Origin: Escherichia coli
GTDB lineage: Bacteria; Pseudomonadota; Gammaproteobacteria; Enterobacterales; Enterobacteriaceae
DNA length: 64,000 nt
Assembly: GCF_009931435.1 (NCBI RefSeq)
Contig: NZ_CP043414.1
Strand: one strand, 5' to 3'
Shown piece by piece: positions 5,398 to 8,025 of this stretch. The notes beneath the pieces were generated by a model. That model was not told the DNA's origin. It ran no database searches and was given only the letters and a program-made list of their open reading frames with translations. Positions within the stretch are counted from its first letter, which is position 1, and the number at the start of each line of letters is the position of its first letter. The position numbers and the translations under genes were made by a program.

Positions 5398-8025
5398 ATG
5401 AGCGACCTTGCGAGAGAAATTACACCGGTCAACATTGAGGAAGAGCTGAAGAGCTCCTATCTGGATTATGCGATGTCGGTCATTGTTGGCCGTGCGCTGC
5501 CGGATGTCCGAGATGGCCTGAAGCCGGTACACCGTCGCGTACTTTACGCCATGAACGTACTAGGCAATGACTGGAACAAAGCCTATAAAAAATCTGCCCG
5601 TGTCGTTGGTGACGTAATCGGTAAATACCATCCCCATGGTGACTCGGCGGTTTATGACACGATCGTCCGTATGGCGCAGCCATTCTCGCTGCGTTACATG
5701 CTGGTAGACGGTCAGGGTAACTTCGGTTCCATCGACGGCGACTCTGCGGCGGCAATGCGTTATACGGAAATCCGTCTGGCGAAAATTGCCCATGAACTGA
5801 TGGCCGATCTCGAAAAAGAGACGGTCGATTTCGTTGATAACTATGACGGCACGGAAAAAATTCCGGACGTCATGCCGACCAAAATTCCTAACCTGCTGGT
5901 GAACGGTTCTTCCGGTATCGCCGTAGGTATGGCAACCAACATCCCGCCACACAACCTGACGGAAGTCATCAACGGTTGTCTGGCGTATATCGATGATGAA
6001 GACATCAGCATTGAAGGGCTGATGGAACACATCCCGGGGCCGGACTTCCCGACGGCGGCAATCATTAACGGTCGTCGCGGTATCGAAGAAGCTTACCGTA
6101 CCGGTCGCGGCAAGGTATATATCCGCGCCCGTGCGGAAGTGGAAGTTGACGCCAAAACCGGGCGTGAAACCATTATCGTCCACGAAATTCCGTATCAGGT
6201 GAACAAAGCGCGCCTGATCGAAAAAATTGCGGAACTGGTAAAAGAAAAACGCGTGGAAGGCATCAGCGCGCTGCGTGACGAATCTGACAAAGACGGTATG
6301 CGCATCGTGATTGAAGTCAAACGCGATGCGGTCGGTGAAGTGGTGCTCAACAACCTCTACTCCCAGACCCAGTTGCAGGTTTCTTTCGGTATTAACATGG
6401 TGGCATTGCACCATGGTCAGCCGAAGATCATGAACCTGAAAGACATCATCGCTGCGTTTGTTCGTCACCGCCGTGAAGTGGTGACCCGTCGTACTATTTT
6501 CGAGCTGCGTAAAGCTCGCGACCGTGCTCATATCCTTGAAGCATTAGCCGTGGCGCTGGCAAACATCGATCCGATTATCGAACTGATCCGTCATGCGCCG
6601 ACGCCTGCAGAAGCGAAAACGGCGCTGGTTGCTAATCCGTGGCAGCTGGGCAACGTTGCCGCGATGCTCGAACGTGCGGGCGATGATGCTGCGCGTCCGG
6701 AATGGCTGGAGCCAGAGTTCGGCGTGCGTGACGGTCTGTACTACCTGACCGAACAGCAAGCTCAGGCGATTCTGGATCTGCGTCTGCAGAAACTGACCGG
6801 CCTTGAACACGAAAAACTGCTCGATGAATACAAAGAGCTGCTGGATCAGATCGCGGAACTGTTGCGTATTCTTGGTAGCGCCGATCGTCTGATGGAAGTG
6901 ATCCGTGAAGAGCTGGAGCTGGTTCGTGAACAGTTCGGTGACAAACGTCGTACTGAAATCACCGCCAACAGCGCAGACATCAACCTGGAAGATTTGATTA
7001 CTCAGGAAGATGTGGTAGTGACGCTCTCTCACCAGGGCTACGTGAAGTACCAGCCGCTTTCTGAATACGAAGCGCAGCGTCGTGGCGGGAAAGGTAAATC
7101 TGCCGCACGTATTAAAGAAGAAGACTTTATCGACCGACTGCTGGTGGCGAACACCCACGACCATATTCTGTGCTTCTCCAGCCGTGGTCGCGTCTATTCG
7201 ATGAAAGTTTACCAGTTGCCGGAAGCCACTCGTGGTGCGCGTGGTCGTCCGATCGTCAACCTGCTGCCGCTGGAACAGGACGAACGTATCACCGCGATCT
7301 TGCCGGTGACTGAGTTTGAAGAAGGTGTGAAAGTCTTCATGGCGACCGCTAACGGGACCGTGAAGAAAACTGTCCTCACCGAGTTCAATCGTCTTCGTAC
7401 CGCCGGTAAAGTGGCGATCAAACTGGTTGACGGCGATGAGCTGATCGGCGTTGACCTGACCAGCGGTGAAGACGAAGTAATGCTGTTCTCCGCCGAAGGT
7501 AAAGTGGTGCGCTTTAAAGAGTCTTCTGTCCGTGCGATGGGCTGCAACACCACCGGTGTTCGCGGTATTCGCTTAGGTGAAGGCGATAAAGTCGTCTCTC
7601 TGATCGTGCCTCGTGGCGATGGTGCAATCCTCACCGCAACGCAAAATGGTTACGGTAAACGTACTGCGGTAGCGGAATACCCGACTAAGTCGCGTGCGAC
7701 GAAAGGGGTTATCTCCATCAAGGTTACCGAACGTAACGGTTTAGTGGTTGGCGCGGTGCAGGTAGATGACTGCGACCAGATCATGATGATCACCGATGCC
7801 GGTACGCTGGTACGTACTCGCGTTTCTGAAATCAGCATCGTGGGCCGTAACACCCAGGGCGTGATCCTTATCCGTACTGCGGAAGATGAAAACGTGGTGG
7901 GTCTGCAACGTGTTGCTGAACCGGTTGACGAGGAAGATCTGGATACCATCGACGGCAGTGCTGCGGAAGGGGACGATGAAATCGCTCCGGAAGTGGACGT
8001 TGACGACGAGCCAGAAGAAGAATAA
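5398..8025 (+). CDS. gyrA: DNA gyrase subunit A
   Basis: 875-aa [24 protein letters not shown]; active-site region AAAMRYTE; acidic C-terminal tail. Confidence 0.98.

Follow-up and report, generated by a model that had tools for sequence, protein, structure and literature searches.

DNA gyrase of Escherichia coli is an A2B2 enzyme formed by GyrA and GyrB, which makes a double-strand cut via Tyr122 and passes a second duplex through the break. Tyr122 is the residue of covalent linkage to DNA in type IIA topoisomerases, and the GyrA box is the hallmark that distinguishes gyrase from topoisomerase IV. Gyrase is the primary quinolone target in E. coli, where the first chromosomal step is typically S83L; rarer substitutions have been described at GyrA positions 51, 67, 81, 82, 84, 106, and 196 in PointFinder-type catalogues. 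The quinolone phenotype is also shaped by parC, parE, gyrB, efflux regulators, and plasmid genes, and plasmid-borne or efflux mechanisms can raise MICs without any change in gyrA. In E. coli gyrase's water–metal ion bridge, Ser83 and Asp87 both act as anchors and the bridge mainly positions the drug, and the most common gyrase substitutions conferring resistance in E. coli are S83L and D87N or D87Y (PMC9917921). Structures of GyrA of K-12 are available as PDB 6RKS, 1AB4, and 3NUH.

The window, that is, the whole 64-kb stretch of DNA analysed in the present study, was collinear with K-12 from approximately position 2,344,800 down to 2,279,170 and was reversed relative to K-12. It contained gyrA in the same neighbourhood as in K-12 (yfaL–ubiG–gyrA–yfaA–yfaT), with the following features.

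5345..5353, plus strand: TGTTATAAT, extended −10 element in the ubiG–gyrA intergenic region, read from the sequence and the same in K-12
5398..8025, plus strand: gyrA coding sequence, DNA gyrase subunit A, 875 codons and a stop codon, from the ORF list and its translation
5596..5715, plus strand: quinolone-resistance-determining region (QRDR), codons 67–106, amino acids identical to K-12
5638-5658, plus strand: GDSAVYD motif, codons 81–87, with G81/D82 at 5638-5643 and SAVYD at 5644-5658
5644..5646, plus strand: codon 83, TCG, Ser, wild type, the same codon as in K-12
5656..5658, plus strand: codon 87, GAC, Asp, wild type, the same codon as in K-12
5761..5763, plus strand: codon TAT of the catalytic Tyr122, present on comparison with K-12
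7075..7095, plus strand: GyrA box QRRGGKG, residues 560–566, in the C-terminal beta-pinwheel, found by motif search

The frame at 5398..8025 begins with ATG and was the sole long plus-strand ORF spanning 5640-5659. An NCBIfam profile search with its product returned the gyrA equivalog TIGR01063 at 1310 bits (cut-off, 877), with an alignment spanning residues 8–840 of the protein and positions 1–799 of the 800 in the profile. In a base-by-base comparison, the product was identical to GyrA of strain K-12 MG1655 (b2231, NP_416734.1) at 875/875 residues, and in a PDB sequence search chain A of 6RKS matched it end to end, the alignment as printed showing no mismatch. The two gyrA genes differed at 69 of 2,628 nucleotides (97.4% identity), and all 69 differences were synonymous. 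The resulting dS of 0.117 and dN of 0 (approximately 635 synonymous and 1,990 non-synonymous sites) indicate an intact, essential gyrA under strong purifying selection. Arg121 precedes Tyr122 in the protein, and in one relative (L004, ENA ERZ27237940) the identical gene product is listed with PF03989 (DNA_gyraseA_C). Given its 100% identity to the E. coli enzyme, which has been characterized both biochemically and structurally, the protein would be expected to carry out negative supercoiling together with GyrB. Within the window, no sequence feature contradicted the reading of this gene as wild-type gyrA. We consider the locus to be the chromosomal housekeeping gyrA of E. coli carrying the ancestral quinolone-susceptible allele, with a probability of approximately 0.97.

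The element TGTTATAAT at 5345-5353 is presumably the extended −10 of the gyrA promoter, and the promoter spacer upstream of it showed two base differences from K-12. A simple consensus scan for promoters and terminators called neither a gyrA promoter nor a downstream terminator, and the promoter assignment therefore rests on the identity with K-12 and on prior knowledge. Expression of gyrA from this conserved promoter may be assumed.

A preliminary description of this DNA had read codon 83 as tcg and codon 87 as gac within GDSAVYD. Direct reading and comparison with K-12 demonstrated that both codons are correct, and the interval of 5644-5658 that it gave spans SAVYD exactly. Codons 84–86 are gcg gtt tat, encoding Ala, Val, and Tyr. 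Compared to K-12, the QRDR contained three synonymous changes, namely GTC>GTT at codon 85, CGC>CGT at codon 91, and TAT>TAC at codon 100. A chance occurrence of GDSAVYD is not a concern, as the motif occupies the homologous site in a full-length gene with a gyrA model score of 1310 bits. The reference residue was present at GyrA positions 51, 67, 81, 82, 83, 84, 87, 106, 119, 122, and 196, and the identity with K-12 at 875/875 residues means that every known resistance position of GyrA, beyond 83 and 87, is wild type. The whole of GyrA being equal to the K-12 reference, S83L and D87N/G/Y are absent, as had been claimed, and in the alignment to a reference GyrA that had been suggested as a check, residues 83 and 87 match those of K-12.

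A single base change in codon 83 leads from TCG to Leu (C>T at 5645), Trp (C>G at 5645), or Ala (T>G at 5644), and the one-step neighbours of GAC at codon 87 include Asn (G>A at 5656), Tyr (G>T at 5656), and Gly (A>G at 5657). The C at 5645 is the middle base of codon 83, and a T at this position gives S83L; the allele is thus one C>T transition away from first-step resistance.

A long minus-strand ORF at 5560..6531 (323 aa) lies over the QRDR. It was rejected as a gene and is attributed to codon usage. Its frame is in register with the codons of gyrA, a gene in which the sense codons that generate stops on the opposite strand, TTA, CTA, and TCA, occur at only four of 875 positions (55, 383, 726, and 782). 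It is open because these codons are so few, and the pattern in K-12 is the same. A second minus-strand ORF, at 5480..5755 (91 aa), also runs across the QRDR.

Applied to the encoded enzyme, the mechanism of quinolone action described in the literature would be as follows. Fluoroquinolones would insert into gyrase-cleaved DNA and block its religation. The C3/C4 keto-acid of the drug would chelate Mg2+, and two of the waters of this ion would form hydrogen bonds with Ser83 and Asp87 on helix alpha-4, making up the water–metal ion bridge. With both Ser83 and Asp87 present, the bridge could form, the drug would be correctly positioned, and religation would be blocked, resulting in a sensitive enzyme. 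S83L, D87N, and similar substitutions would remove an anchor of the bridge and confer target-mediated resistance. Because the protein is equal to the K-12 enzyme, the encoded gyrase is predicted to be drug-sensitive and to behave like the susceptible reference. The identity to GyrA of the quinolone-susceptible K-12 supports the earlier prediction, limited to this locus, that GyrA is susceptible. The claim is limited to GyrA, and the phenotype of the isolate depends on loci beyond the window. The source isolate is predicted not to have taken the principal chromosomal path to fluoroquinolone resistance. The result is equivalent to the output 'no gyrA point mutation' of an AMR genotyping pipeline, and its practical value is routine.

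The gene order of the window was ypaB, yfaL, ubiG, gyrA, yfaA, yfaT, yfaS, yfaQ, yfaP, and the ato operon, followed by rcsC, rcsB, rcsD, micF, ompC, ftp, ada, alkB, yojI, mqo, and eco, and then by nap, ccm, narP, yejO, proL, lapC, yejL, yejK, rplY, radD, rsuA, and the start of bcr. The nucleotide identity to K-12 was about 95–98% per kilobase. Long collinear alignments, either to K-12 or to strain 24A16CRGN010, accounted for every base of the window, indicating that it holds neither inserted DNA nor a quinolone resistance gene of the plasmid type. When the 64-kb window was searched by tblastn with GyrA, neither a second copy of gyrA nor parC was revealed; this search and the comparison of gene content confirmed the earlier remark that the window lacks parC.

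Several other loci of the window differed from their K-12 counterparts. The autotransporter adhesin gene yfaL (YfaL/EhaC; 625-4389, plus strand) encodes 1,254 aa, compared to 1,250 in K-12, with 91.9% protein identity, and the nucleotide identity to K-12 drops to 88% per kilobase in this gene. In an exact-protein look-up with YfaL of the window, no exact copy was on record. Several relatives have a yfaL disrupted by an IS (transposase genes in L012, L014, and L015). The alpha-2-macroglobulin family gene yfaS (approximately 10504-15018, plus strand) is one intact frame, 10360..15018 from stop to stop, which matches the 1,504-aa CDS annotated in strain 24A16CRGN010; in K-12, the gene is annotated as a pseudogene. 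The autotransporter gene yejO (54173-56779, plus strand) is a single frame of 868 codons without IS5, whereas the K-12 copy is split by IS5K. The kilobase most divergent from K-12 outside yfaL was 55001-56000 (89.3%). The porin gene ompC (32066-33169, plus strand) is intact, and its 367-aa product shows 95% identity to that of K-12, with indels in the loops; ompC of strain 24A16CRGN010 is annotated with an internal stop. The MicF sRNA gene micF was detected at 31639-31732 on the minus strand (116.8 bits).

The ribosomal protein gene rplY (60372-60653, minus strand) encodes an L25 that differs from that of K-12 at seven of 94 residues (K10N, A22T, K34N, I40V, E41A, A51V, and Q87L), and its neighbours yejK, radD, and rsuA showed >99% protein identity to K-12. 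The rplY of the window was found at at least 99% nucleotide identity in only 18 of 5,425 complete E. coli genomes, and the allele is rare and lineage-restricted. Upstream of rplY is the leader of the L25 ribosomal protein (60675-60700, minus strand), and proL, encoding tRNA-Pro(GGG), is located at 56881-56957 (minus strand); both are at the positions expected from K-12. The Rfam family naRNA4 (REP/BIME-type) matched on both strands at 27902-27978, between rcsC and rcsB, and again at 39748-39943, between mqo and eco, where the alignments to K-12 overlap.

The frequency of the allele was assessed by searching a 33-mer over codons 80–90 in 5,426 complete RefSeq E. coli genomes. The version present in the window (Val85 GTT) matched at at least 99% in 2,013 genomes and the K-12 version (Val85 GTC) in 639, so that wild-type codons 80–90 occur in at least 2,652 of the 5,426 genomes (48.9%). 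On the GTT background, the S83L 33-mer matched exactly in 413 genomes and the S83L+D87N 33-mer in 1,371. Even in a collection with this clinical bias, no other state of the QRDR is as frequent as the wild type, and the finding in the window is thus ordinary. The gyrA search gave no match in one of the 5,426 'complete' genomes, matches at two places in at least one genome, and one match on a plasmid-labelled record; for an essential single-copy gene, these oddities are probably due to assembly or labelling issues.

Relatives of the same lineage were gathered by an exact-protein look-up with YfaA of the window, a look-up with UbiG also giving matches, and were compared over 7,689 bases (window 5172-12860). 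Four of them, L004 (ENA ERZ27237940), L005 (GCA_037230235.1), L008 (GCA_009899265.1), and L009 (GCA_016664965.1), were identical to the window at 7,689/7,689 bases; these four are draft or metagenome assemblies. A further draft assembly, L006 (GCA_030511265.1), which is a natural near-isogenic relative, shared 7,687 of the 7,689 bases and differed by C>T at 5645 and C>T at 11884. The former changes TCG to TTG and gives Ser83Leu, whereas the window is unmutated; the latter lies inside yfaS. Since an almost identical sequence carries S83L, the window holds the ancestral allele, and first-step S83L has arisen at least once in its lineage. S83L was also found in the more distant relatives L003 and L012. 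Among complete RefSeq genomes, in which the source lineage is poorly represented, the best match reached 99.0% in gyrA and 98.4% over the first 25 kb. The lineage may thus be sparsely sequenced, with the window and the four identical assemblies forming, together with GCA_030511265.1, a natural near-isogenic S83L pair, a tentative suggestion that we hold at somewhat less than even odds. If true, the pair could show the cost of first-step S83L and its effect on MIC in a wild, non-laboratory background, and would be a convenient resource rather than a new mechanism.

The near-identity of L006 also bears on whether the consensus could mask a minority S83L subpopulation, making the wild-type call an artefact, since it indicates that the lineage does acquire this mutation. 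However, four independent assemblies agree with the window at all 7,689 bases, codon 83 (TCG) among them, and such masking is very improbable. A resistance substitution missed at a GyrA codon other than 83 and 87 might be sought among the rarer catalogued positions, but this explanation is refuted by the 0 amino-acid differences from K-12 over 875 residues, and its probability is practically nil. The numbering and the prediction of drug sensitivity would both be wrong if the ORF encoded ParC, the topoisomerase IV subunit. ParC and GyrA share an N-terminal fold and a similar motif of a serine and an acidic residue, and ParC models do score significantly against the protein, if below their cut-offs. 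The parC_Gneg equivalog (TIGR01062), however, reached 580.3 bits, below its cut-off of 628.9, compared to 1310 for gyrA, and the protein shows 100% identity to GyrA of K-12, carries the GyrA box, and is encoded between ubiG and yfaA. The profile scores, the K-12 identity, and the GyrA box refute an identity as ParC, which we regard as having a negligible chance of being correct.

A further explanation concerns the phenotype and not the locus, namely that GyrA is wild type, yet the isolate is less susceptible to fluoroquinolones via determinants outside the window, such as plasmid qnr, aac(6')-Ib-cr, qepA, or oqxAB, efflux mutations in marR, acrR, or soxR, or changes in gyrB, parC, or parE. The 64-kb chromosomal window contains none of these determinants, and approximately half of the complete E. 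coli genomes have an altered QRDR, suggesting widespread quinolone selection in the sampled population; both points are consistent with resistance of this kind. On the other hand, ompC and micF are intact in the window, and high-level resistance without a change in gyrA is unusual because gyrase is the primary target and S83L the first step. We consider reduced susceptibility by this route unlikely, and it would leave the reading of the locus as wild-type gyrA in place.

Among described systems, ParC of E. coli has a homologous fold, and in its QRDR Ser80 and Glu84 form the equivalent serine and acidic-residue pair that anchors the same water–metal ion bridge (PMC9917921). It is a different gene, absent from the window. 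Strain 24A16CRGN010 (NZ_CM148325.1), among the nearest complete genomes, has the same gene in the same synteny; the gyrA genes of these nearest genomes show 98.9–99.0% identity to that of the window, with 98.4% over 25 kb, and that of 24A16CRGN010 differs by 28 nucleotides and carries S83L. The allele of the window is a textbook wild-type allele whose biology is already known, adding nothing new on gyrase or on quinolone action. The gyrA of K-12 MG1655 has the same length, QRDR, Tyr122, GyrA box, extended −10 element, and neighbours as the gene in the window.
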